Positions 2,736 to 39,830 of a stretch of DNA of 64,000 bases are shown here, piece by piece. A model generated the notes under the pieces. That model was given only the letters and a program-made list of their open reading frames with translations, ran no database searches and was not told the DNA's origin. Numbering within the stretch: the stretch's first letter is position 1; each line of letters begins with the position of its first letter. The position numbers and the translations under genes are program-made. The DNA is from a virus. The stretch is taken from the IMG/VR virus record IMGVR_UViG_3300028364_001588, one strand, 5' to 3'.

Positions 2736-3722
2736 CTACACTTTTTCTGACTTTGTTCTCATGTCAATGAAGTTGTCTGTTTCGTCAACAATTTCATAAC
2801 CAAATATTTCTTCATGTATATCTTCAAGAGTAATGATTCCAAGTATATTGTCATGTTCATCAACAACAATTAACAAGTGCTGTCTTGCGGTTCTAAAAAT
2901 CTCCAATATGTCATCCAACTTCGTATCATCCTTTACAGTAATTGGCTCATTTGCTTTGTTCATTATTTTAGTACCCTTTCTCATTCCGAGAAGATTCTTG
3001 GCAAGGACGACTCCAACAACTTGGTCCCTCTTTGTTTTGAAGACGGGCACTCTTGTGTGACCCTTCTGAATTATGCTATCAATTAATTCTGTGGTAAGCT
3101 TTTGGTCTTCATAGAATCTATACACATTTTTCTTTGGTGTCATTACCTCTCTTGCTGTCTTATCAGAGAACGTTAGAGCTCCCATAACAGTTTTTGCTTC
3201 CCTTTCATCAATATCAGTAGTAATGTCCAGCTGGTGGTCTCTAATCATCTCGCCAATTTCAAACTTTGTATGTCGAACTGGAGGCTCAGGCCCAAGAAAA
3301 TAATCCATAATTTTAGAAAGCGGCCAACATATAACCCAAAGAGCAATCATAAACACTCTAAATACAGGAGCTGCTTTTGAACCTATTTCAAGAGGATACC
3401 TTGAGCATATTGCTTGTGGTAATATTTCACCAAACACAACAACTAATGCTGTTGCAACAATCACAGCCATTGCACCAGTAAACATCTCACTCATGTATAT
3501 TGCAAGTATGTTGTTAACTAATACGTTACCTATAAGAATCGTACAAAGAAGAAGGTTTCCATTCTTTCTAAGTCTATAAACAACATCAGCTCTCTTGTCG
3601 CCCATGCTTATTTTTCTTTGCAACTCTTCTTTCCCAAGGGACATAAACCCAAGGTTAAGTCCAGAAAATAATCCAGACATAAATAATAATCCTAAAATAA
3701 TCCCTATACTAATTAGCTCCAT
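2736..3722 (-). CDS. CNNM/CorB family Mg2+ transporter (DUF21 + CBS pair)
   Basis: LLCTILIGN, FGEILPQA, VMTP, GHTRVPV, GIITLEDIHEEIFG.EI.DE. Confidence 0.9.
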   Translation of the reverse strand: MELISIGIILGLLFMSGLFSGLNLGFMSLGKEELQRKISMGDKRADVVYRLRKNGNLLLCTILIGNVLVNNILAIYMSEMFTGAMAVIVATALVVVFGEILPQAICSRYPLEIGSKAAPVFRVFMIALWVICWPLSKIMDYFLGPEPPVRHTKFEIGEMIRDHQLDITTDIDEREAKTVMGALTFSDKTAREVMTPKKNVYRFYEDQKLTTELIDSIIQKGHTRVPVFKTKRDQVVGVVLAKNLLGMRKGTKIMNKANEPITVKDDTKLDDILEIFRTARQHLLIVVDEHDNILGIITLEDIHEEIFGYEIVDETDNFIDMRTKSEKV

Positions 3723-4866
3723 CTTCTTTTACGTGGTATTGAACTTTATAACATTCGTTGAGGTCTGGGACATCCAGGGCACCAATCATACTATTAACTG
3801 CGTCCTCTGGGACCTTGTAGTATCTGTTATGATTTTGATTTAATAAAACTTTATATGGAACCTCTATGTAGATAACTTCTACCTTGGCTCCGTAATCTTC
3901 AAATTCTTTAATAGCCTTTCCACGCATATCTTTTGTGATATTTGTTGCGTTGAATACAAAATCTTGCTTAACTCTCATGTGAACTTTACACATTTCCTTG
4001 ATGTCTTGATAGATGTGGCCTTCTGCTTTGGTGTCTCCACGCTTAACTTTTCTTTCTCTTCTCAGCGCATCAATTGATACCATTGGAAGGTCGGGTATGT
4101 TGTTTTTAATAAAAGTGTCTTTACCAGAACCTGAAACAGCGCACATAATGTAGGCTATTAAATCTTTTTCATCAAAAGGCTCATAGTCAGGGTGTGCTTC
4201 TTCTTTTTGGAAGTAGTATCTTCTACCGAGGTCGGATGCGAACTCTCTTGCGTTTCCAAAGCATTTATTATCCTTGCAAAGCTCTTCAAACAATTCTACA
4301 CGCATTAGCATTTCTTCTGAATCTTTTGCAATCCTACCAAGTATATCAGCTTTTGCAAATAGTCCAAGCATTTTCGTATTAAGAAACAAACTTGCGCCAA
4401 TAACCTCTTTATCTGGATTCTCTTTTTCTATAGCCCAAATTGGCAATCCGTGGTGACGAACAAGCTTACAAATATGTTCTCTAATTATAAATGGAGTTGA
4501 TATGTCTTTGTATAAAATTACCCTGGCAGTCTTCTCTCCTCTCTTGGCATGACTTCTTGAGGTGATTGCCATTCTCTTGACTCCATTCTCTTCAATTTCC
4601 TCTTCTTCTGTTGTGGAACGTTTTTCTATGTCATGAAACATTGCGGTTGCAAACAATATATGTTGCCCCTGTTCGTCAAAACACTTAAAATCTGGATGTG
4701 CAACAAGTGCCTCCGCCACCATTTTGGTGTGAACGAATACATCGCCTTCAGCGTGCCAGATTTTATCTTGAGGTACTCCCTTCATATCTCGGAACCAATC
4801 GAATTCTTTTTCGAGTTTGTCCCAAGGTATAGGAAGCCCTACTTCATAGTAAGGGAATTTCCACAT
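3709..4866 (-). CDS. HD-domain phosphohydrolase fused to P-loop kinase (AAA_33/Pnk-like)
   Basis: WHAEGDVFVHT, FHDIEK, ADILGR; AVSGSGKDT Walker A, FNATN. Confidence 0.85.
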   Translation of the reverse strand: MWKFPYYEVGLPIPWDKLEKEFDWFRDMKGVPQDKIWHAEGDVFVHTKMVAEALVAHPDFKCFDEQGQHILFATAMFHDIEKRSTTEEEEIEENGVKRMAITSRSHAKRGEKTARVILYKDISTPFIIREHICKLVRHHGLPIWAIEKENPDKEVIGASLFLNTKMLGLFAKADILGRIAKDSEEMLMRVELFEELCKDNKCFGNAREFASDLGRRYYFQKEEAHPDYEPFDEKDLIAYIMCAVSGSGKDTFIKNNIPDLPMVSIDALRRERKVKRGDTKAEGHIYQDIKEMCKVHMRVKQDFVFNATNITKDMRGKAIKEFEDYGAKVEVIYIEVPYKVLLNQNHNRYYKVPEDAVNSMIGALDVPDLNECYKVQYHVKEDGAN

Positions 4867-10986: not shown

Positions 10987-11056
10987 AGTATTGTTTTACT
11001 ATAAATAGTTTATAAAAACACTTTTACACCAAATCCATTAAATCATAATTCCTCCA

Positions 11057-12322
11057 TCAATTTTCCGATACTTCTGCAACCTTTTCTACTTCTTTAATTC
11101 TTAAAGTGTCCTTACACAGTTGGATTTCTTCTTTGGTGCCAGTGTGTTTAATTGGATTATCACTAAGCTTAACTGTGTCAAACCATATGTCTCCAACTTT
11201 TACTTGAACAATCTTGATGACCATGTTGAGAGCTTTAACTCCAACGTCATTTGTAAAATGGGTCCCAATTCCAAAAGAACTTTTGATTGCCGCAACAGGA
11301 GAACCATAAGCTATCGCTGTCTTTATACCAAGGTCTTTACAAAACTTGTATAAGTCAACAGCAATGTCTGTATTAAGACCGTCAGAGAATACAATAGTTT
11401 TAGAAGATGAGTCAATCTCAAGTTTTCTATAATGAGCTACAACTTTAGTTGCAAACTCAAAAGGGTCGCCAGAGTCATGACGAACTCCATCAAATAATTT
11501 AGCGAATTTTTTATCGAATGTTTTGAAAAATACATCTGTAGTAAATGTATCAGAAAGTGCAATACCAAGGTCTCCTTCATAAACTTTAACCCAGTTCTCA
11601 AGAGCTCTGTAGTTTGCCATTGTGTATCCGTAATGTACAGCATGGAACATGAACCATTCATGAGCGTGAGTGCCTATCGGTTGAATGCCTGTCTTCATTG
11701 CAATATGCACATTAGATGTACCTACAAGGAATGGGTTTCCATTATCGAAACAAGAAAGCAAGTCCTCAACTACTTCCAATTGGTTGTCATAAGAATATCT
11801 TCTACGAGTTCCAAAGTCAGCAACCTTCATTCCGTGAGTGTAGAATTTCTTACCCTTTTCAATATTGTTTGTGTGCCTCTCGCTTCTGCTCTTAATTTTT
11901 TCTCCAGTCATCTGGAAGTAAAGTTCAGATATAAGCGCCATAAGAGGAACTTCCCAAAGGATAGTTCTGTACCAGTAACCAGTAATGTTGATTGTAAGGT
12001 CGCCACCGTCTTGCGTGATTCCTATTTCAGAAGAGTCATATCTATATGATTTCAAAAAATCAATATATGTAGGCTTTAAAAAGCTACCGCATTTTTGTGT
12101 AAGAAAATCAGCTTCAGAGTCTTTTAAAGATAGTTGTTCCATCTTTTTAAGTTCTTGTCTAAGCCTAAGGTCAAATCCATCTGGGAACTTTGTTCCGCCT
12201 CTGTTGATGAAATTGTACTTAACCCATTCTCTTTGAAAAAGCTCCACAACAGCTTGTTGTTGGGTAAACTTATATAAATCATTATCTATTATAGACTTAA
12301 TTATACTTGACTTTTCGTTCAT
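11057..12322 (-). CDS. pncB: nicotinate phosphoribosyltransferase
   Basis: DNDLYKFT, DFGTRRR, GTSNV, GTHAHEW, LSDTF, GVRHDSGDP, FSDGL, FGIGT, VKLSD. Confidence 0.95.
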   Translation of the reverse strand: MNEKSSIIKSIIDNDLYKFTQQQAVVELFQREWVKYNFINRGGTKFPDGFDLRLRQELKKMEQLSLKDSEADFLTQKCGSFLKPTYIDFLKSYRYDSSEIGITQDGGDLTINITGYWYRTILWEVPLMALISELYFQMTGEKIKSRSERHTNNIEKGKKFYTHGMKVADFGTRRRYSYDNQLEVVEDLLSCFDNGNPFLVGTSNVHIAMKTGIQPIGTHAHEWFMFHAVHYGYTMANYRALENWVKVYEGDLGIALSDTFTTDVFFKTFDKKFAKLFDGVRHDSGDPFEFATKVVAHYRKLEIDSSSKTIVFSDGLNTDIAVDLYKFCKDLGIKTAIAYGSPVAAIKSSFGIGTHFTNDVGVKALNMVIKIVQVKVGDIWFDTVKLSDNPIKHTGTKEEIQLCKDTLRIKEVEKVAEVSEN

Positions 12323-13614: not shown

Positions 13615-15027
13615 ATGAGCAAAGAAATTAGAAATAAAATAGCAAATATACTTAACGAGGAATTTGGAGAATCTCAAAAAGACAAGCTCGTTGGGATGTT
13701 AAACGCACTTGAATTTAAGAATGACGTTCTTGCAGCAGGAGGAGAAATTTACGCTGTAGGAGGAATTGTGCGTGATGCAATTATGGGAACGCCAAGTGAT
13801 GACCTTGACATTGTTGTTCGTGGTGTAGCTTACGACCAGTTATTTGCGATACTTTCTAAATATGGAAAACCGACTGACACGTCTCACGTAGATGAGAATG
13901 GTAAGAAGGATTTTGGTTCTACAAAGTTCGTTTCATCAAATAAAGCCTTTAATCAATTTCTTGCAGACAATGGTGCTGCCAGAGATATTGATGTGATGCT
14001 TCCTCGTAAGGACGCAAAGGACGTTGGAGTAAAGGGTCACAAAGGAATTAAATCTGAAGTAAACCCAATGTTTACAATTCAAGATGACCTTGAGAGACGT
14101 GACATAACAATAAACGCAATCGCCATGGATATGGCTGGCAATCTAATTGTAAATGGAACTGGGGTTGAGGACATTCAAAATGGTGTCATAAAAGCGGTTA
14201 ATGCAGATGCGTTTATTGAAGACCCGCTTAGAATGCTTAGAGCTGTAAGGTTTGCTGCAAGATACAATTACAATTGGGACCCAGAAACTGTTAGACTAAT
14301 TAAAGAAAACGCCTCACTTCTTGCTGACAAAGAAGAGTTGCACAGCAGTAGATTCTTAAAAGAGTTTCAGAAGATGATTGGTAAAGCTGATTTATCAAGA
14401 GCTGTTCGATTGATTGTTGAACTGGGTATGTACAAGCATATTTTTGGCGTAGAGTCAAAGATTCAAGATTACACTAAATTTCAATACGCAAATAGCGTTG
14501 GGGAGATGGCATACATGATGTTTGACAACGAAGCTTCAGGAACAATTTTAGGACTGGTTAACAACAATATAACAGATGACAAATACACCGCTGCCGTTGT
14601 AGAGTCTCTAATTAACTACGTTGGCAATGTGAAAAACAAAAACCTTGACTTCATCAAGAGAGTTAATGAGCTTGCTTCTATCTTTCTTAAAAAAATGGAT
14701 ACAGTTGCGAGAACAGGTCCAGGCGTAGACGTTTTAACAAACTCTTACTACATAGAACCTCATGATAGAGAGATTGCAAGAAAGTTTTCTACTGGAGAAC
14801 TTCCAGCTGGAGAAAATGACGTTGCCTTTAAGGGTCAAGAGTTTGCTGAATTTGTAAGAGACATTATAGTAAGCAACCAGGGTGAGTTTAGTAAATCAAA
14901 AGATGGCAGAAAGTTTGGTAACGCAAAAAGACTTGCGCTAACAGCTCTTTACAATGAAGAGATTGAAAACGATGTTGATAGTATTAAAAGATTCTTGATT
15001 GATTCCGCAAATCAATGGATGCTATAA
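13615..15027 (+). CDS. class II CCA-adding enzyme / poly(A) polymerase family
   Basis: AVGGIVRD, DLD, DLERRDITINAIA, FIEDPLRMLRAVRF. Confidence 0.9.
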   Translation: MSKEIRNKIANILNEEFGESQKDKLVGMLNALEFKNDVLAAGGEIYAVGGIVRDAIMGTPSDDLDIVVRGVAYDQLFAILSKYGKPTDTSHVDENGKKDFGSTKFVSSNKAFNQFLADNGAARDIDVMLPRKDAKDVGVKGHKGIKSEVNPMFTIQDDLERRDITINAIAMDMAGNLIVNGTGVEDIQNGVIKAVNADAFIEDPLRMLRAVRFAARYNYNWDPETVRLIKENASLLADKEELHSSRFLKEFQKMIGKADLSRAVRLIVELGMYKHIFGVESKIQDYTKFQYANSVGEMAYMMFDNEASGTILGLVNNNITDDKYTAAVVESLINYVGNVKNKNLDFIKRVNELASIFLKKMDTVARTGPGVDVLTNSYYIEPHDREIARKFSTGELPAGENDVAFKGQEFAEFVRDIIVSNQGEFSKSKDGRKFGNAKRLALTALYNEEIENDVDSIKRFLIDSANQWML

Positions 15028-16674: not shown

Positions 16675-16845
16675 ATGAAATTTATAAATAACTGGAAGAG
16701 CCCGAACAAACAATGGGACAAATGGGAATTCAGACTAAGACTTGGCGCTATAGATGTACTTAGACTTAAATACGACCACTCAGACAAATATTTTGAATTT
16801 AGAGTTATTAACTTAGGTGGAAAATTAGGTGGACGTAGAAAATAA
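16675..16845 (+). CDS. small hypothetical protein (56 aa, not in ORF track)
   Basis: MKFINNWKSPNKQWDKW... after CTATTTAT at 16651. Confidence 0.6.
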   Translation: MKFINNWKSPNKQWDKWEFRLRLGAIDVLRLKYDHSDKYFEFRVINLGGKLGGRRK

Positions 16846-18154
16846 CATACCAGAAGAAGGGAGAAACTTATCTCACACAGCAAAAAGAAGCGCTAAGTAC
16901 AGGAACAAAAAAGGTCCTGCTAAGTATTTCAAGCCGTATAAGAATCTTAAGTACATCGTAATGGACGAAGAAGTTGAGCCAGATGATGTATCAGTTCCTG
17001 TTGCGCCATTAAGAGATGAGTTAAATGCTAAAGTTTGGACTGCAGATAATCAATTAAGACCAGAGGTAAGACAGGCGTTGATTGATATTGCTAATTCTTA
17101 TTTTGAAGCGCTTGAGCTTGAGCTGGAAATCAAAGACATTTTGTTTACTGGAAGCCTTGCTAATTATGGATGGACTGAAGGTAGTGATATTGACTTGCAT
17201 ATTATTGTAGAGTATGGAGAACTTGGAGAAGTTGCATTTCTCGAAGACTATCTTTATCTTAAAAAGAAAAACTGGCTTGATGCTCACAATATTTCTATTT
17301 ATGGATTCGAAGTTGAACCGTTTGCAAAAGATGTTGAGAACGAATTTGCCTACAAAGCAATTTATAGCGTTCTAAATAACGAATGGGTGGTTCCGCCAAG
17401 AAAAGATAAGCCTGTAATTGATTTTGAGACAGTTAAAGAAAAGTCTGCAAGTCTTATGAATGATATTGATAAAATCTTATCAATAAAAGATAATGTACAA
17501 CAATTTGAAGCTGCTGAGAAACTTAAAAACAAGCTTGGCGGATTAAGAAACATTGGCCTACATAAAAGTGGCGAATACTCTAATGAGAACCTAATTTATA
17601 AAACACTTAGAAGAACTGGGTACCTTGATAAGTTAGGTGATGCTAAAAATGATTCGTTTGATGCTGGGCTGTCACTTAACGAAGGAGTTAAAAGCAAAGT
17701 TATAAGTGAGAATAAAACTGTAACTCAAAACCTTGGCGCTACTCCAATGGTTCATACACTAAAAGTGCAGAGTGGAATTGATGGGATGATTCCAGAAAAA
17801 ATTAGAATAATAAAAGACTTTATAAGTTTCGTGTGTGGAAAGCTTGGAATGGAAGAACCTGTAAGCGTATGCCTTAGAAGAGGTAGAGACGCTTATATTG
17901 AAACTACAGCTTCGTATGTGCCAGGAGACAATGAAAATCACATTAGATGCAATGGTAGAGCTCTTGTAGACATACTTAGAAGTATAGCGCACGAACTTAC
18001 TCACAATAGACAGAGAGAAGTTGGTATGTTCGGAAATGGAGACCAGGTTCAAAATATTGGAGGCCACATTGAGGACCAAGCTAATTCAGTTGCTGGAATC
18101 TTTATAAAAGACTTTACTCACAATTACGGGTACGACAATATTTACGACATTTAA
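16829..18154 (+). CDS. pol-beta-type nucleotidyltransferase fused to an HExxH zincin-like domain
   Basis: TGSLANY.W...SDIDLH, VE; C-terminal LRSIAHELTH..Q...IEDQANS. Confidence 0.7.
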   Translation: MDVENNIPEEGRNLSHTAKRSAKYRNKKGPAKYFKPYKNLKYIVMDEEVEPDDVSVPVAPLRDELNAKVWTADNQLRPEVRQALIDIANSYFEALELELEIKDILFTGSLANYGWTEGSDIDLHIIVEYGELGEVAFLEDYLYLKKKNWLDAHNISIYGFEVEPFAKDVENEFAYKAIYSVLNNEWVVPPRKDKPVIDFETVKEKSASLMNDIDKILSIKDNVQQFEAAEKLKNKLGGLRNIGLHKSGEYSNENLIYKTLRRTGYLDKLGDAKNDSFDAGLSLNEGVKSKVISENKTVTQNLGATPMVHTLKVQSGIDGMIPEKIRIIKDFISFVCGKLGMEEPVSVCLRRGRDAYIETTASYVPGDNENHIRCNGRALVDILRSIAHELTHNRQREVGMFGNGDQVQNIGGHIEDQANSVAGIFIKDFTHNYGYDNIYDI

Positions 18155-24649: not shown

Positions 24650-24704
24650 ATAGGCTTTTATTATAAATAGTTTATAAATAATTTGACATTTTTGTCACAT
24701 ATTT

Positions 24705-27151: not shown

Positions 27152-27446
27152 CATAGAGATGGCGAACATGGTCGGCAAGACTTATTTTGCAATTGCAACT
27201 TGGCATAACCAAGATTTTGATAACGAGAAAGAAAAACAAGAAGCTTTGAAGCATGTGTCTGCTGAGATTATACAGCAAATACTTGAAGATACATTCCTTC
27301 AGATGGATGGTGTTGTAGACACAGAAGCTAAAGACGTTAGTCACAGCGTTCCTGCAAAAACAATTAACCAAACATCAGGAGGTACAGGAAAGATGTTTGC
27401 TCCTACTGAGGACCCAATAATAAGAGCTCTAAGAGAAAATAGATAA
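27132..27446 (+). CDS. hypothetical protein
   Basis: 104 aa ORF overlapping upstream gene end. Confidence 0.6.
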   Translation: MEKKKIDIEMANMVGKTYFAIATWHNQDFDNEKEKQEALKHVSAEIIQQILEDTFLQMDGVVDTEAKDVSHSVPAKTINQTSGGTGKMFAPTEDPIIRALRENR

Positions 27447-27450
27447 TATC

Positions 27451-28335
27451 ATGATAACTATATTCAAAAATATAATAAAGTTCATTACAGACCCTAAAAA
27501 CACTCGAATGATAATGTTGGGCGTTATTGTTGTAGTATTATTGTTGTTCTTGCAACAGTGCAATAGAACGCAACACTTTAAAGACCAGGTTGAGCTTGAG
27601 AAACAGGAAACAAAAAGAGTTACAAATAACTACGAAGCTGCAATGGACACAATTGTTCAAGGCAAAGCAGATGAGAATACGTGGAGAGCTGAAAAAGCGG
27701 GATATGAATTAACTCTTGATGAACTTGAAGGCAAATATTCTGACCTTCTTGGCGACTTCAAGGTTGAGAAAAATAAGCCACCAAAAGTTATCATAAAAAC
27801 AGAGTACGTAATAAACGAAGTTATAAACAATGTTCCAGTATATGTTGAGATTGATAGTTTTGGAAATACGGTTATGGCATTTAATGACAGCACATACCAC
27901 GACTCTACAATGACTAATTATAGATTTTTAAGCGGAAGGATTCCATATAAGATTGTGTTCGACCCATCTGACTCTCTTTATAAAGCAGTTCCAGATTTTG
28001 GCACATTTGACCTTACACTGGGAATGAACCTTAACTTAGGGTTATTCCAAGATAAGAAAACAAGAAAGATTAGCATAATGGCTGACACAGATTATCCTGG
28101 AGTTACGTTTACAAACATTGAGGGAGCCAGCATAATGGATGACCCTGCAAACAAAAAAGTTCTTAGACAAATGCGTAAACCATGGGGGTTAGGACTTAAT
28201 GTTGGATATGGTGCTATCGTAGACATAAAGAGTGGAAACATTTCTACTGGCCCTTATTTCGGAGTAGGCTTAAGTTATACGCCTAAATTTTTACAATGGG
28301 GAAATAAAATATCTTTTTTAACTCTATTTATATAA
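27451..28335 (+). CDS. membrane-anchored coiled-coil protein, possible spanin
   Basis: N-terminal TM helix followed by Cys, coiled coil, C-terminal amphipathic beta strands (WGLGLNVGYG...YFGVGLSY). Confidence 0.45.
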   Translation: MITIFKNIIKFITDPKNTRMIMLGVIVVVLLLFLQQCNRTQHFKDQVELEKQETKRVTNNYEAAMDTIVQGKADENTWRAEKAGYELTLDELEGKYSDLLGDFKVEKNKPPKVIIKTEYVINEVINNVPVYVEIDSFGNTVMAFNDSTYHDSTMTNYRFLSGRIPYKIVFDPSDSLYKAVPDFGTFDLTLGMNLNLGLFQDKKTRKISIMADTDYPGVTFTNIEGASIMDDPANKKVLRQMRKPWGLGLNVGYGAIVDIKSGNISTGPYFGVGLSYTPKFLQWGNKISFLTLFI

Positions 28336-28345
28336 AACAAAACAA

Positions 28346-28885
28346 ATGTATACAGAAAGACTTATTGCAAATATGGCAAAGAAGACTGGGATTGACATTA
28401 GCAAGTTCGACATAGAAGAGTTGGTAATGGGAATGGATGTTGAGTTAGAACACGGAAGTGAAAATCCAGAGACAGACGTAACAGGAGATGACCCAGAAGC
28501 TACTTTTAAAATTGTAATATCTCACATGCGTGAACTTTCAGATTATTACACAAGATTAAAAAAAATGGAAAAGAAAGAAAACATTAGCGAATACGCAAAA
28601 AGAATGAGAGAACTTGCTGGTCTTTCTGAAGGAAATCAGAACAAAACTCTTAAAACTATTCAAGAAGGGGAATCTTCTTTTGAAGAAGGTCAGACTTTCT
28701 ACGCAAAAGACATGATGACTTCTAATGATGTTGTTAAAGAATCTGAAGAAAAGGATGAAGATTTTGAAACTCACAAGTTTGAGCAAAAGACAATCGAAGA
28801 AGGCGCAGATGATGCTGAGCTTTACAACTTAAATGAAAACACTGTTATTGTACTTGACTTCTTAGAAGACGAGGATAATAAATAA
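28346..28885 (+). CDS. DUF5661-like putative virion protein
   Basis: GMDVELEH...KI..SH..E..DYYTRL; ISEYAKRMRELAGL; promoter 28324-28331. Confidence 0.6.
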   Translation: MYTERLIANMAKKTGIDISKFDIEELVMGMDVELEHGSENPETDVTGDDPEATFKIVISHMRELSDYYTRLKKMEKKENISEYAKRMRELAGLSEGNQNKTLKTIQEGESSFEEGQTFYAKDMMTSNDVVKESEEKDEDFETHKFEQKTIEEGADDAELYNLNENTVIVLDFLEDEDNK

Positions 28886-28889
28886 AAGA

Positions 28890-28970
28890 TACCTTGGGGC
28901 GATAACGGACCCCTATCCTTTAGGACCGTTATAGTTACAAAAAAAGAGACTTATCGCTAAGTCTCTTTTT
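28890..28970 (+). ncRNA. candidate 3'-UTR RNA antisense to 23S rRNA helix 69
   Basis: 28920-28938 TTAGGACCGTTATAGTTAC is the exact reverse complement of 23S GUAACUAUAACGGUCCUAA (E. coli 1910-1928); masked by hairpin arm 28902-28915. Confidence 0.6.
28941..28970. terminator. bidirectional intrinsic terminator
   Basis: AAAAAGAGACTTA-tcgc-TAAGTCTCTTTTT between convergent genes. Confidence 0.85.
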
Positions 28971-28994
28971 CTTTGTCTAATATTTTCTAATTTC

Positions 28995-29231
28995 TTAGTA
29001 TCCCTGTGGAGCTTCATCGTTTGATGCTCTTGGTGCTTCTGTTACAGACGGTGCTGATACAACCTCTTCAGTTGGAGCTGGAGCTGGAGCTTCTTGGTTT
29101 TGAAGTGAGTTAAGGTAAGATATGGCTACATAAATGTAGTGAGATTCTTCTAATGAGTATACTCCACCTTTGCTATGTGCAACGTTTACTGCTGAAATTA
29201 ATGTGTTTAATGCTTCTGCTACTGAATTCAT
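28995..29231 (-). CDS. hypothetical protein
   Basis: AL..LI.AV..A..KGG.YSLEE motif; TAnnTTTG promoter. Confidence 0.65.
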   Translation of the reverse strand: MNSVAEALNTLISAVNVAHSKGGVYSLEESHYIYVAISYLNSLQNQEAPAPAPTEEVVSAPSVTEAPRASNDEAPQGY

Positions 29232-29305
29232 AATTCTAAATTTATAAAGTTTTTATTTAACCAAATATATAAACCTGGTTTTGTAAAATAAATAGTTTTT
29301 GTTTT

Positions 29306-30536: not shown

Positions 30537-31283
30537 TTATGTTTTTGTAATAAAATTAATGTTTAAAAACTTCAACACTTCTTTGTTTCTAAGATTCTTG
30601 TAGTCACTCGCAAATAGGGTATATTCAAAAAGCATTTCATTATACTTTGCAACTGGCGATTTATTTCCCTTTCCAAATTTTTGAATTAGCTTTCTCGAAT
30701 TTACATCAAACTCGATTGTAACGTGAGGCATGTTATGTTTATCTCTAATAGAGACGATGAGAGATTGTTTGTTTTTAACCTTGCTTTTATAACCTTTTCC
30801 ACCAACGCAATGGCCCATTATATTCCCTTCAAGTTTTAGGTCATTTGCTGTCAATAAATACAAGAAATGTTCTTGGTCTGAAAATCTAAATATAACCCTA
30901 TCTTCTACGATTGTAGGGATGTCCATTTTTTCGATTCTATACTTCCTTCTCATCTCATCATGCCACTCTGCTTGCATTTGATATGCCTTATTAAAGTCGC
31001 ATTGAAATATGTCAGCTTTCGTTTCTGATGCCCAGTCTACTATTAGTCTAATATCTGTAAGTCTGTCGATTATTTCATGAGATTTTTTCACTTCTTTAGA
31101 AATCCAAACATCATATTTGTGTTTTCTTTTTTCAGCTAATTCATTGTCTTGATTTACGTTGTCTCCAATGAATCCAATAGAGTTTCCAACCTCTGAAATC
31201 TTCTTAACTAACTTTTCAGCCTCTTCTTCTGGAAGTTCGCTAAAAAACGTTTTCTTTATGTATTCCTCTCTTTTAGTTAGCAT
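30537..31283 (-). CDS. PcfJ-like domain protein
   Basis: LKLEGNIMGHCVG, SIRD...PHVTIE, Q..GKGN. Confidence 0.75.
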   Translation of the reverse strand: MLTKREEYIKKTFFSELPEEEAEKLVKKISEVGNSIGFIGDNVNQDNELAEKRKHKYDVWISKEVKKSHEIIDRLTDIRLIVDWASETKADIFQCDFNKAYQMQAEWHDEMRRKYRIEKMDIPTIVEDRVIFRFSDQEHFLYLLTANDLKLEGNIMGHCVGGKGYKSKVKNKQSLIVSIRDKHNMPHVTIEFDVNSRKLIQKFGKGNKSPVAKYNEMLFEYTLFASDYKNLRNKEVLKFLNINFITKT

Positions 31284-37447: not shown

Positions 37448-37858
37448 CTACACCTTATTTAGCCACTCGTCTATTAAATTTGATTTTACAGAAAAACACT
37501 GCACTTCTGACTGATTTAATTCAGCACCAGTATAAACATCTACTCTACTTGAAGTTGCTGGAGATGCAAATGATGTAAACGACATTCCACTCTGAATTGT
37601 TCTCATAGAAGTTTCGCCTTGAATACTCAAGGGATAAAGCATGATGTTGTCTTCATATTGAACTACGCTGCTTACAATTTCAGATGGCTCATTGACATAC
37701 TGATTTGTATACTTTCTGTTTAACACATTACCATCAACACTGTAGAAGCATTTTAACTCCCTCTCTTCGTCTTTAAATTCTGCATAACTAACAAGATTGT
37801 TGCACTTGTCATATATTCCTATGCTGCTATAACTTTTCTCCATCTTCCAGTTCTTCAC
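37448..37858 (-). CDS. hypothetical protein
   Basis: 136 aa ORF. Confidence 0.55.
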   Translation of the reverse strand: MKNWKMEKSYSSIGIYDKCNNLVSYAEFKDEERELKCFYSVDGNVLNRKYTNQYVNEPSEIVSSVVQYEDNIMLYPLSIQGETSMRTIQSGMSFTSFASPATSSRVDVYTGAELNQSEVQCFSVKSNLIDEWLNKV

Positions 37859-39830
37859 TAAGTTTTAAATCTTTAATTGGTCTGAAAGAAACATCTTTAT
37901 CTGTTAGATAGTTCATCATGAGGTTTTTAAACCTGTTGCTCCCCTGTTCGTTAGCAAAACCTTTTACTTGGTCAAACTCAAGACCATCTCTTGAATAGTA
38001 TTTGAATCCGACAGTGAACCTTTCAAGTTCTTTAGCTGGTCTATTAGGGTCTCTATCATAAACTGTAGCCATAAGATAATTACCTTGAGCTACATTGGGA
38101 GCGTATTGAGAAGCGCTGTGTCTCATATCAATACCCTCTTTGATGATTAACCCTGGAGAATCAAGAAGATGCATCTCAAGAGGCCCTTCATAATCCCCTT
38201 CACCTTTAGACTCAAGGAATCTAAATTTAGAAACGAATTCTTTGATTGCTCCAGTTTTCTCTTCCTCACTTTTAACTTTATAGAAAGTCACAAGATTATC
38301 GTGATAATCAACCAAGTCAGAGTAAGTCTTGATTTTGTTGAAGTGCTTCTTTGGGTCGAACTTCATGATTTCCATCATCATTCTTGCATCATCATACTCT
38401 ACAAAAGAAAACTCTCTTACATTTTTGTAATCCTTGTGGAAGAATCTATTCTCAACGAAATCATCAATAATGCAAAGAACCTTGTCAAGCTCCTTTGGGT
38501 CCATTTTATCTCTAAAGTAGAAAACATCAATTGCATGCGTCAATAAATCGAGGTCATGCCTTTGAAGAAGTGAAATAACTCCTTTTTTGTCATAAAACTT
38601 GAAGTATTTAATTATCTGTTTGTATTGAGAGAAGTTTGTAATATGATTGTAAATAAATTTAGAAATAGTACCATCTTCAACAGCATCCATTACTTGATAC
38701 TTGCCATCAACCTTAACAACTTTACCGCTTTTGTAATTTTTATTAAGATTAATTTTATAATTAGCAGACTCATCAGTTTCTTCTATCTTGTAATTAAGCT
38801 TATCTTCTTCTTTGTTTATTGTGTTTTCGTAATCAATTCTTTGTTTTGATTTAAAGGCAAAGTCATGAACTTCTTTGTTGTCTCCATTTACCTCTTCATT
38901 AAGTTTGTTGATGTACTTTGTAACCAAAAAGTTAAATATGTTTACTGGAGATGTTGCGCCAGACTCTATCATTTCTTCAGAAGAAGGTATGTCACACTCA
39001 AGCATAAGGTCATATAAGAACTGAGAACCCTTGGTGAGTGCTACAGTTGAAAGGTTTGAATACTTGATTATTCCAAAAAATATAGAAAGAAGCTTCTTCA
39101 TGTAAGGTATTCCAATCTCCATAGGAGCGCTTCTGATTGATTCTAAGAACTCTGATACTATTTCGCTATTCTTGGTATCAGAAACGAAATTAGCAAGCCT
39201 GTTAACGTACATATGAAGCTTCATAAAGTCAACAACCTTATCTGTTTCTTTTATGAAGAACTTGTCTACATACTTTATCGCTTCATCAAGACCAAACTCA
39301 ACTTCTTGAGTATTTCCAAAATCTTGATATGTTAGCTTTTTACTTTCCTTTTCAAATCTTATGTACTTAATTGATTCATCAAATACTACTTTAAATTCTT
39401 TTTCACCATCAATTTCTCTTGAGGCGATTTCTGGACAAGCTTTTGCGTAATAAAATATTAAATCTGTATCAGTTTCCTTGAAGTCGTATCCAGAGATAAA
39501 ATAAGTACCAATGGGAATAAGTTTTCTTCTAATGTCTGGGTTGCTAAAGTTTTTTTCACAATGAGGACATTGAACCTTTTTGTCTAATGCAAGCTTTATG
39601 TCTTTATACATTTCTCCATAAATATCATCACCCTCTTCTTCCTCTTTTTCTCCGAAAAGATTTAAAGGTTTTTTGGCACTAAGTGCAGTGTCAAGTTCCA
39701 ACACCTCTTCTTCGTTGCTGCTTATAAAACTTTCCCCGCAGCTGCAAAAGTATTTATCCTCTTCTTTGCCTTCTATGACAAAGGAATATTCTGAACTAAT
39801 ATTGTCTAAATTTAGAATTTGATTTTCCAT
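37827..39830 (-). CDS. large PcfJ-like protein with N-terminal Zn ribbon
   Basis: CSCG...CPHC; YHDNL; IKEGIDMRHSASQY; DQVKGFAN. Confidence 0.65.
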   Translation of the reverse strand: MENQILNLDNISSEYSFVIEGKEEDKYFCSCGESFISSNEEEVLELDTALSAKKPLNLFGEKEEEEGDDIYGEMYKDIKLALDKKVQCPHCEKNFSNPDIRRKLIPIGTYFISGYDFKETDTDLIFYYAKACPEIASREIDGEKEFKVVFDESIKYIRFEKESKKLTYQDFGNTQEVEFGLDEAIKYVDKFFIKETDKVVDFMKLHMYVNRLANFVSDTKNSEIVSEFLESIRSAPMEIGIPYMKKLLSIFFGIIKYSNLSTVALTKGSQFLYDLMLECDIPSSEEMIESGATSPVNIFNFLVTKYINKLNEEVNGDNKEVHDFAFKSKQRIDYENTINKEEDKLNYKIEETDESANYKINLNKNYKSGKVVKVDGKYQVMDAVEDGTISKFIYNHITNFSQYKQIIKYFKFYDKKGVISLLQRHDLDLLTHAIDVFYFRDKMDPKELDKVLCIIDDFVENRFFHKDYKNVREFSFVEYDDARMMMEIMKFDPKKHFNKIKTYSDLVDYHDNLVTFYKVKSEEEKTGAIKEFVSKFRFLESKGEGDYEGPLEMHLLDSPGLIIKEGIDMRHSASQYAPNVAQGNYLMATVYDRDPNRPAKELERFTVGFKYYSRDGLEFDQVKGFANEQGSNRFKNLMMNYLTDKDVSFRPIKDLKLSEELEDGEKL

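Follow-up and report, generated by a model that had tools for sequence, protein, structure and literature searches.

CpxQ and SroC are base-pairing small RNAs (sRNAs) derived from the 3′ untranslated regions (UTRs) of mRNAs. Among phage-encoded examples, the PR′ leader of Stx phages gives rise to StxS (PMC7547250), and EHEC prophages encode anti-sRNAs (PMC4104026). The element described here lies at positions 28,886 to 28,972 of the window, which is the whole 64,000-nucleotide stretch of viral DNA that was analyzed (IMG/VR record IMGVR_UViG_3300028364_001588). It resembles these RNAs in having a short antisense seed and a Rho-independent terminator hairpin with a U-tail at its 3′ end, and in being located at an mRNA end or in a short leader. 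One member of the family in a different phage contig (L017) has its core downstream of Q, at the very position from which StxS-type leader RNAs arise. The targets of CpxQ, SroC, StxS, and the anti-sRNAs are mRNAs or sRNAs, whereas the complement of the element is 23S rRNA. The match of 16 to 30 nt is also much longer than the usual seed, and the bipartite layout is permuted, with the terminator loop holding a second module.

The CopA/CopT and RNA I/RNA II pairs carry their antisense bases in hairpin loops, where kissing interactions nucleate pairing before the helix propagates. The element likewise presents antisense bases in a loop, which suggests loop-first nucleation, and it has alternative folds. 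CopA and RNA I are encoded in cis opposite their targets, whereas the element is encoded in trans against a host rRNA and is found in unrelated phages.

Helix 69 (H69) of 23S rRNA forms intersubunit bridge B2a and contacts tRNA, the release factors, and the ribosome recycling factor (RRF). A synthetic 13-mer PNA is described as invading the H69 hairpin, blocking translation, and stopping the growth of E. coli (Kulik 2017, as summarized in PMC10777018 and PMC12828698), and the site is thus open to antisense attack. The PNA has the same target as the element, but it is man-made, has a non-RNA backbone, and is without masking or a second module. The C/D-box guide sRNAs of archaea and eukaryotes pair with nascent rRNA, and in archaea helices 68, 69, and 71 are guide hotspots (PMC4644070). 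Their guide duplexes are 10 to 12 bp and depend on machinery that is missing in bacteria, whereas the duplex of the element is longer. A search of 28,886–28,972 for the C (RUGAUGA) and D (CUGA) boxes detected neither UGAUGA nor CUGA. The I-CeuI site in 23S rDNA contains the same 19 bp; the element differs in its non-contiguous right half, its RNA-strand substitutions, and the lack of a linked nuclease.

Full-text literature searches, including searches with the sequence string, returned no description of the element; the matches were all I-CeuI sites, primers, or probes. Phage sRNAs were reviewed in 2025 without any mention of rRNA, and Rfam contains no such family. The element is of a known kind in being a base-pairing RNA with a seed and a terminator; its target class, its bipartite permuted layout, and its spread across unrelated phages are new.

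An antisense core lies between a phage gene and a terminator

A sequence-only reading of the window had proposed that a 19-mer complementary to 23S nucleotides 1910–1928 is located between a stop codon and a terminator, and both points were confirmed. The reverse complement of the 19-mer at 28,920–28,938 (+ strand) is identical to genuine 23S rRNA from several phyla, as represented by rRNA-bearing loci (L020, L035, L045, and L311), and the target sequence is identical in E. coli. The 19-mer is present as a single copy in the window, and no match was found in 100 shuffled sequences with up to three mismatches allowed. The core begins 34 nt after the stop codon of the open reading frame at 28,346–28,885 (+) and a 13-pair terminator hairpin at 28,941–28,970 comes directly after it. 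The earlier reading extended the match on its CC side across a 1-nt bulge. The duplex is indeed longer, but no bulge is needed: the pairs C28918–G1930 and U28919·G1929 give a continuous 21-nt complement of 23S 1910–1930, and the antisense core is defined here as 28,918–28,938 (+). Sequence, terminator prediction, and alignment identify an A-run spacer at 28,939–28,945 (+) that doubles as the T-run of the terminator on the − strand.

The claim that the flanks of the core are not rRNA also stands, with the addition of two further short tracts that complement 23S (28,890–28,900 and 28,954–28,959). An Rfam search that included the large subunit (LSU) rRNA model returned nothing near the cut-off at the locus at either gathering or permissive thresholds. 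An LSU rRNA fragment or pseudogene was rejected because there is no LSU covariance-model match and the flanks are unlike 23S. The window contains no other rRNA-complementary tract of at least 19 nt and no long tract complementary to the 16S tail. The sole long complement found for the core is 23S rRNA rather than an mRNA or sRNA, although a host mRNA target is conceivable. A host call from a one-base-longer match to the 23S of a Flavobacteriales MAG was rejected as too weak.

The element is the predicted 3′ end of a DUF5661 transcript

The source of the window is a large uncultured phage with a GC content of ~34%. A contig of at most 257 kb encodes the window's own DUF5661 protein, and neither tRNA genes nor Rfam families were detected in the window. 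The gene at 28,346–28,885 (+) encodes this 179-residue DUF5661 protein (Pfam PF18905, E = 7e-14) and closes a conserved four-gene + strand block, with the element as the 3′ UTR of the gene. The block is found in synteny in 10 relatives. Domain searches of the upstream block for function and timing returned phage DUFs only. The description of the locus as a "late" 3′ UTR is not supported, because the upstream genes are phage DUFs without known function.

A promoter-like motif, TATTTATA, was detected by motif enrichment at 28,325–28,332 (+), 14 nt 5′ of the DUF5661 start codon. There are 30 TATTTATA sites in the window compared to 7.3 expected (~4-fold), and 30 sites were reached in none of 100 shuffles. 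The motif is probably the phage's own promoter element, with no obvious class-specificity. Its placement before the DUF5661 gene points to a monocistronic transcript of ~640 nt with the element as the 3′ UTR, and a transcript of this size that starts near 28,325–28,332 and carries the element is considered likely. TATTTATA often occurs 10 to 20 nt before start codons on the strand of the gene, metabolic genes included; examples are 28,325–28,332, 11,000–11,007 (−), and 24,662–24,680 (−).

A 78-residue open reading frame at 28,995–29,231 (−) in the ORF list converges on the element and has a 65- to 81-residue − strand homolog in the relatives. The 13-pair hairpin at 28,941–28,970 has T-runs on both sides and is a bidirectional intrinsic terminator between the convergent genes. 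This arrangement means that the − transcript should stop before it reaches the H69-sense copy and that the + transcript should contain the antisense tract.

The element is retained in syntenic relatives

Relatives of the locus were sought in two ways, by motif and by the neighboring DUF5661 protein without reference to the motif. The element is at the end of the block in 10 of 10 contigs that have DUF5661 homologs of 52 to 81% amino acid identity in the same four-gene block. L086 is syntenic with window positions 27,385–29,301 at 70 to 75% nucleotide identity, yet its core and terminator loop are unchanged. The element is also carried by L241 and L244 from other metagenomes, and L001, a relative with 45% identity, has a diverged copy. 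In a 12-sequence alignment, the invariant columns are grouped into five blocks: ACCUUGGG, the AUAACGG mask, the core, the A-run, and the UCGCU loop. The spacer that separates mask from core varies freely. Three relatives have an 80-residue gene inserted between DUF5661 and the element (L315:2462–2704, L316:2134–2376, and L320:2111–2353). The element stays beside the terminator in all three, showing that it is linked to the end of the operon and the terminator and not to one particular gene. Two relatives, L318 and L001, have two or three central mismatches in the core, which counts against pairing with 23S.

The earlier reading had named absence from related phages, as expected of an rRNA chimera, as the outcome that would speak against it; the element is present in 10 of 10 syntenic relatives. 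Retention in these relatives and an unchanged core amid flanks of 70 to 75% identity rule out an assembly chimera or chance. An ordinary structured 3′ end that serves as stabilizer and terminator, with a functionless resemblance to rRNA, would account for the standard bidirectional terminator. This explanation, taken together with an rRNA chimera, is extremely improbable. It would leave identical elements in sequences that were assembled independently and have diverged in their flanks (the window, L241, and L312), a core common to ~30 flank families, and the lack of an Rfam LSU match to be explained, along with a 19- to 30-nt complement to one rRNA site in unrelated phages for which chance is excluded.

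The core is masked by a conserved hairpin

RNAalifold consensus and per-sequence folds identify a mask strand, G-R-C-x-AUAACGG, at 28,898–28,908 (+) that is a near copy of the 23S sense sequence 1912–1922. This resemblance is needed for pairing with an antisense strand. The lowest-energy fold of the 5′ domain in the window and 11 relatives is one nested hairpin between G-R-C-x-AUAACGG and CCGUUAU-A-GUU. The mask pairs with core positions 28,926–28,932 and 28,934–28,936, and these pairs are kept in 10 to 12 of the 12 sequences in the RNAalifold consensus; one pair is lost in each of two relatives and two are lost in L318. The 5′ domain is predicted at −9 to −14 kcal/mol in the masked form compared to −3 to −8 kcal/mol with the core forced free. 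With both strands conserved, covariation in the mask gives modest support: G·U/A-U alternation at one pair, G·U at another, and a true swap from U-A to A-U in L001. Other families also mask part of the core with a local arm, located 5′ or 3′ of it, and these arms covary with the core variants (GACUGU/ACAGUC, GAUUGU/ACAAUC, and UAGGAC/GUCCUA).

Folds with the core forced free contain an alternative hairpin, P1, at 28,896–28,913 (+) in which GGGG (28,896–28,899) pairs with CCCC (28,910–28,913). P1 and the mask helix are mutually exclusive, and P1 is predicted when the core is engaged or released. The arms of P1 covary as GGGG/CCCC, GGGAC/GUCCC (L244), and GGGGC/GCUCC (L317). Cofolding of the element with a 74-nt 23S fragment gives the 21-bp duplex together with P1, and this complex is favored over the separate folds by approximately −23 kcal/mol. 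Shuffled elements in the same calculation had a mean of −8 kcal/mol with a standard deviation of 3.5, and the best shuffle reached −21 kcal/mol. A possible pairing of GCGAUA (28,899–28,904) with the terminator loop was rejected because it is not conserved and is found in only ~5 of 12 relatives.

The earlier proposal of self-masking is borne out by these folds. AUAACGG (28,902–28,908) with CCGUUAU (28,926–28,932) and CCUA with UAGG are both in the minimum-free-energy (MFE) fold, and the masking is real and conserved, with the one compensatory swap in L001. The accompanying statement that AGUUAC (28,933–28,938) is left free does not hold, because GUU (28,934–28,936) pairs with G-R-C (28,898–28,900) in the window and 11 relatives. 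What remains unpaired in this region is A28933 and the terminal AC together with the A-run. A masked seed that becomes available on binding is a reasonable proposal in view of the cofold and the alternative P1, but the toehold named for it, AGUUAC, is mostly paired. The conserved parts that stay exposed are the 5′ tail UACCUUGGG, the UCGCU of the terminator loop, and the 3′ AC with the A-run.

The terminator loop and 5′ tract also complement 23S rRNA

The terminator loop UCGCU (28,954–28,958) complements 23S 1932–1936, and the match extends to 1931 when A28959 is counted. The loop is invariant in 12 of 12 sequences, and its closing pairs covary (U-A to C-G). Six of the 12 sequences have U·G wobbles in the terminator stem, where pairing is possible on the + strand only. 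In other families, UCGCU(A/G)(C) is located in hairpin loops on at least nine different stems, and in the C-type family the UCGCU motif is on an internal hairpin. TCGCT is found downstream of the core in 12 of 30 families compared to 4 of 30 upstream. For its reverse complement the counts are 0 and 1 of 30 families, with ~3 expected by chance. The order of the modules, core and then the complement of 1931–1936, is permuted with respect to a continuous antisense; other family members have a continuous antisense of 27 to 30 nt and an ordinary GAAA-loop terminator.

A single-stranded 5′ tract, UACCUUGGGGC, at 28,890–28,900 (+) complements 23S 1922–1932 with two G·U pairs. ACCUUGGG within it is invariant in 12 of 12 sequences and unpaired in the MFE folds, and its GGG(G) is also the 5′ arm of P1. 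The tract resembles the 5′ part of the continuous-type members.

The core recurs across unrelated phages

Family members were defined by a continuous complement of at least 16 nt to 23S 1910–1925 on the transcribed strand. The exact 19-mer was found in 14 IMG/VR stretches, 13 non-rRNA and 1 rRNA, and the 16-mer was found in 33 stretches, of which ~29 to 30 are non-rRNA intergenic and 1 is rRNA; the loci in these and the following counts are not independent evolutionary events. The 16-mer is inside long open reading frames in three stretches (two contexts), probably by chance. A 14-mer scan of IMG/VR gave mostly chance matches in open reading frames and was left out of the counts. The core is shared by ~30 flank families in unrelated contexts and is nearly always intergenic. 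It follows, for example, ribonucleotide reductase (RNR; L016), an HK97-type major capsid gene (L010 and L323), or the antiterminator Q (L017), or lies beside tRNA genes. Sixteen of 18 loci are co-oriented with the upstream open reading frame, and a terminator follows on the same strand in 16 of 30 families compared to 3 of 30 in the reverse orientation. With G·U pairs allowed, the continuous 23S complement ranges from 16 to 30 bp and is always centered on 1910–1925. The window element shares the family features, having the complement, an intergenic co-oriented position before a terminator, the UCGCU loop module, and a mask arm. The search for the motif outside an rRNA context that the earlier reading had called for thus revealed a conserved core with lineage-specific masking arms across phages.

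Several of these loci have their own arrangements. In L017 (1400–1545), a lambdoid-type contig, the core is ~90 nt downstream of Q and directly before a strong terminator. Some family members (L142, L227, L231, and L383) are stand-alone units with a −10 box, a continuous antisense of 27 to 30 nt, and a GAAA-loop terminator beside phage tRNA genes. The L383 element begins a few bases past the 3′ end of a tRNA, a placement that suggests possible release by tRNA-processing enzymes.

The frequent position of the element a few to ~35 nt past the stop codon of well-expressed genes (capsid in L010 and L323, RNR in L016, and the window) fits an alternative in which pairing with 23S acts in cis to the benefit of the phage. 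By tethering 50S subunits once they are released, or by capturing them as translation terminates, the 3′ UTR would raise the local supply of ribosomes for phage mRNAs; the 3′ translation enhancers of plant RNA viruses are a model for such tethering. This alternative is judged unlikely because several families consist of stand-alone units that bring their own −10 box and terminator, or of copies beside or immediately after tRNA genes (L142, L227, and L383), the L017 copy is in a leader downstream of Q, and the element follows a different gene in three relatives. The modules against 1929–1937 also argue for an unfolded target.

Outside IMG/VR, 185,579 species genomes were scanned by a procedure built to skip normal 23S. 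There were 89 matches, and 86 of these are 23S variants; CPR bacteria and mycoplasmas are among the bacteria whose H69 or 1909 sequence deviates. The remaining three are L047 (a degenerate rRNA-like copy), L086, and one Bacteroidota MAG contig, and no attachment-site-like junction is found among them. Short-query BLAST of 50,697 cultured-phage records returned only rRNA contaminants and no exact core outside rRNA, and BLAST of the locus and of the L017 element found no match in these records or in all complete E. coli genomes. A metagenome scan for the gap pattern returned 10 true rRNAs with TATCGCTA nearby and only 5 real elements. A match in Paenibacillus phage Pd_22F was rejected as genuine 23S sequence. 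This real 23S (L311, MZ092003.1, 83.0–83.3 kb) is in an unannotated region near the right end of the record and is either host DNA or a misassembly.

Substitutions are consistent with pairing of the RNA strand

If the + strand RNA pairs with the 23S sense strand, A-to-G and C-to-U substitutions keep wobble pairs and U-to-C and G-to-A substitutions break the pairing. Degenerate IMG/VR scans covered A-to-G, A-to-C/T, C-to-T, and T-to-C changes, and multiply substituted matches were attributed to chance. A-to-G changes opposite U1926, U1923, U1917, and U1911 were found at ~25 loci in many contexts. C-to-T changes at three C positions account for 60 loci from only 7 possible variants in at least 10 contexts; T-to-C changes at five positions account for 12 loci from 31 possible variants and amount to essentially a single family, whose substitution adds a pair within an internal hairpin. 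A-to-C or A-to-T changes in recognizable elements are only opposite the loop bases U1915 and U1911. As judged from these sequence counts, the direction of the asymmetry holds across families.

This asymmetry bears on the alternative, also raised in the earlier reading, that the tract functions as DNA. It might be a target site for, a footprint left by, or a decoy for an I-CeuI-like homing endonuclease, or a recombination core shared with rrn operons. The tract does overlap the I-CeuI recognition site, and the string matches in the literature are I-CeuI sites. Tolerance of A-to-G and C-to-T but not T-to-C is the signature of an RNA strand, and only the left part of the site is contiguous (19–21 bp of ~26 bp, 1910–1936), with the right half permuted into the terminator loop. 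The orientation and terminator biases are strong, and neither endonuclease (LAGLIDADG) nor other nuclease or integrase domains are present in the 10 flanking open reading frames. Only 3 of the 89 genome matches are outside true rRNA, none of them attachment-site-like. A function of the tract at the DNA level is very improbable on this evidence.

Two related families (L260, L272, L273, L300, L306, L276, L283, L284, L289, and L309) have C opposite U1915 and U opposite U1911. With this change the element gains a perfect local hairpin (GUUAUC/GAUAAC or GGUAAC), and the two altered positions lie opposite bases that are pseudouridines in E. coli H69.

A model for pairing with 23S rRNA

The earlier proposal of an RNA-level feature on the + strand that is complementary to H69 is supported by retention, recurrence, orientation, wobble asymmetry, and covarying masks; the terminator-loop module, the 5′ tract, and P1 are additions to it. 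The observed complementarity, conservation, orientation, substitution asymmetry, and structural covariation indicate that the 28,886–28,972 element is probably a member of an antisense RNA family selected to pair with host 23S at ~1906–1937. We infer from these sequence features that the RNA is transcribed, pairs in cells, and has a consequence there. For the fuller model, there is about an even chance that a horizontally mobile RNA module, shared by phages of many lineages and hosts, pairs with H69 and the linker of 23S, switches between two folds, and disables, re-routes, or destroys 50S subunits or their precursors.

In this model, the DUF5661 mRNA would end with 28,886–28,972, and processing may release this end as a small RNA of ~85 nt. 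The target at 23S ~1906–1937 would comprise the H69 loop, its 3′ strand, and the linker toward helices 70/71. In the free state, the core would be sequestered by the H69-like sense strand with UACCUUGGG and the terminator loop UCGCU exposed. In the bound state, the core would be in the 21-bp duplex with 23S and the 5′ domain would refold into P1. 23S nucleotides 1925–1937 are buried in the core of the 50S subunit, where 1929–1937 are engaged, and H69 matures late in pre-50S particles. The modules against 1929–1937 together with the size of the duplex favor an unfolded target, so the most likely target would be unfolded 23S in a nascent or assembling pre-50S particle, or else H69 of the free 50S subunit. 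The likely effect would be interference with 50S maturation or subunit joining, or the marking of rRNA for cleavage as a substrate for a double-strand RNase. The earlier reading had suggested a block to subunit joining, a shield for H69, or a tether for the mRNA as possible effects.

Several considerations count against this model. H69 of the mature ribosome is a modified hairpin, and m3-pseudouridine 1915 is unable to form a Watson-Crick pair, which speaks against pairing, as does the burial of 1925–1937 in the 50S subunit. An ordinary sRNA would be vastly outnumbered by ribosomes, on which the phage itself depends. In the window lineage, the mask covers most of the core.

The invariant UCGCU loop and the sense-like mask strand could also be recognition elements for a protein or another RNA, such as a host ribonuclease toxin or a defense sensor with specificity for this part of 23S or for the UCGCU loop, with the RNA acting as a decoy (pseudo-substrate) or ligand and the 23S complementarity arising as a by-product. 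Among mycobacterial MazF toxins, one cleaves U^CGCU and another cleaves 23S near 1940, and both are leads for this possibility. We consider it doubtful, since the antisense tract is the common denominator across families and the sense-like masks differ between lineages in their sequence, position, and side. In addition, the wobble-type substitutions track pairing with the 23S sense strand, and no conserved partner gene of the element was seen near the family loci.

If the antisense model is correct, phages would manipulate the ribosome by RNA-RNA contact with one of its most highly conserved and functionally central parts, which is distinct from the known protein routes and would be a class of virus-host interaction without a described bacterial precedent. 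Ribosomal RNA would join the target range of bacterial and phage regulatory RNAs, and the universal conservation of the target would explain why one 19-nt tract is constant across unrelated phages. The element would then be a natural, evolved design of seed, mask, and loop module for the antisense inhibition of H69, and its sequence would be a simple marker for such RNAs in viromes.

Other genes of the window

The genes of the window include an SbcC-like protein, an SNF2 helicase, a nicotinate phosphoribosyltransferase (NAPRTase), a CCA-adding enzyme, and PcfJ-like proteins. A polynucleotide-kinase-like AAA_33 protein, the NAPRTase, the CCA-adding tRNA nucleotidyltransferase, and a further nucleotidyltransferase are encoded at 3,709–4,866 (−), 11,057–12,322 (−), 13,615–15,027 (+), and 16,829–18,154 (+). 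Together they make up an RNA-repair and NAD-salvage kit of the sort that large phages typically carry. PcfJ-like domains are found in two proteins, encoded at 30,537–31,283 (−) and 37,827–39,830 (−), and a PcfJ-like gene also adjoins the element in the relatives L312 and L317.
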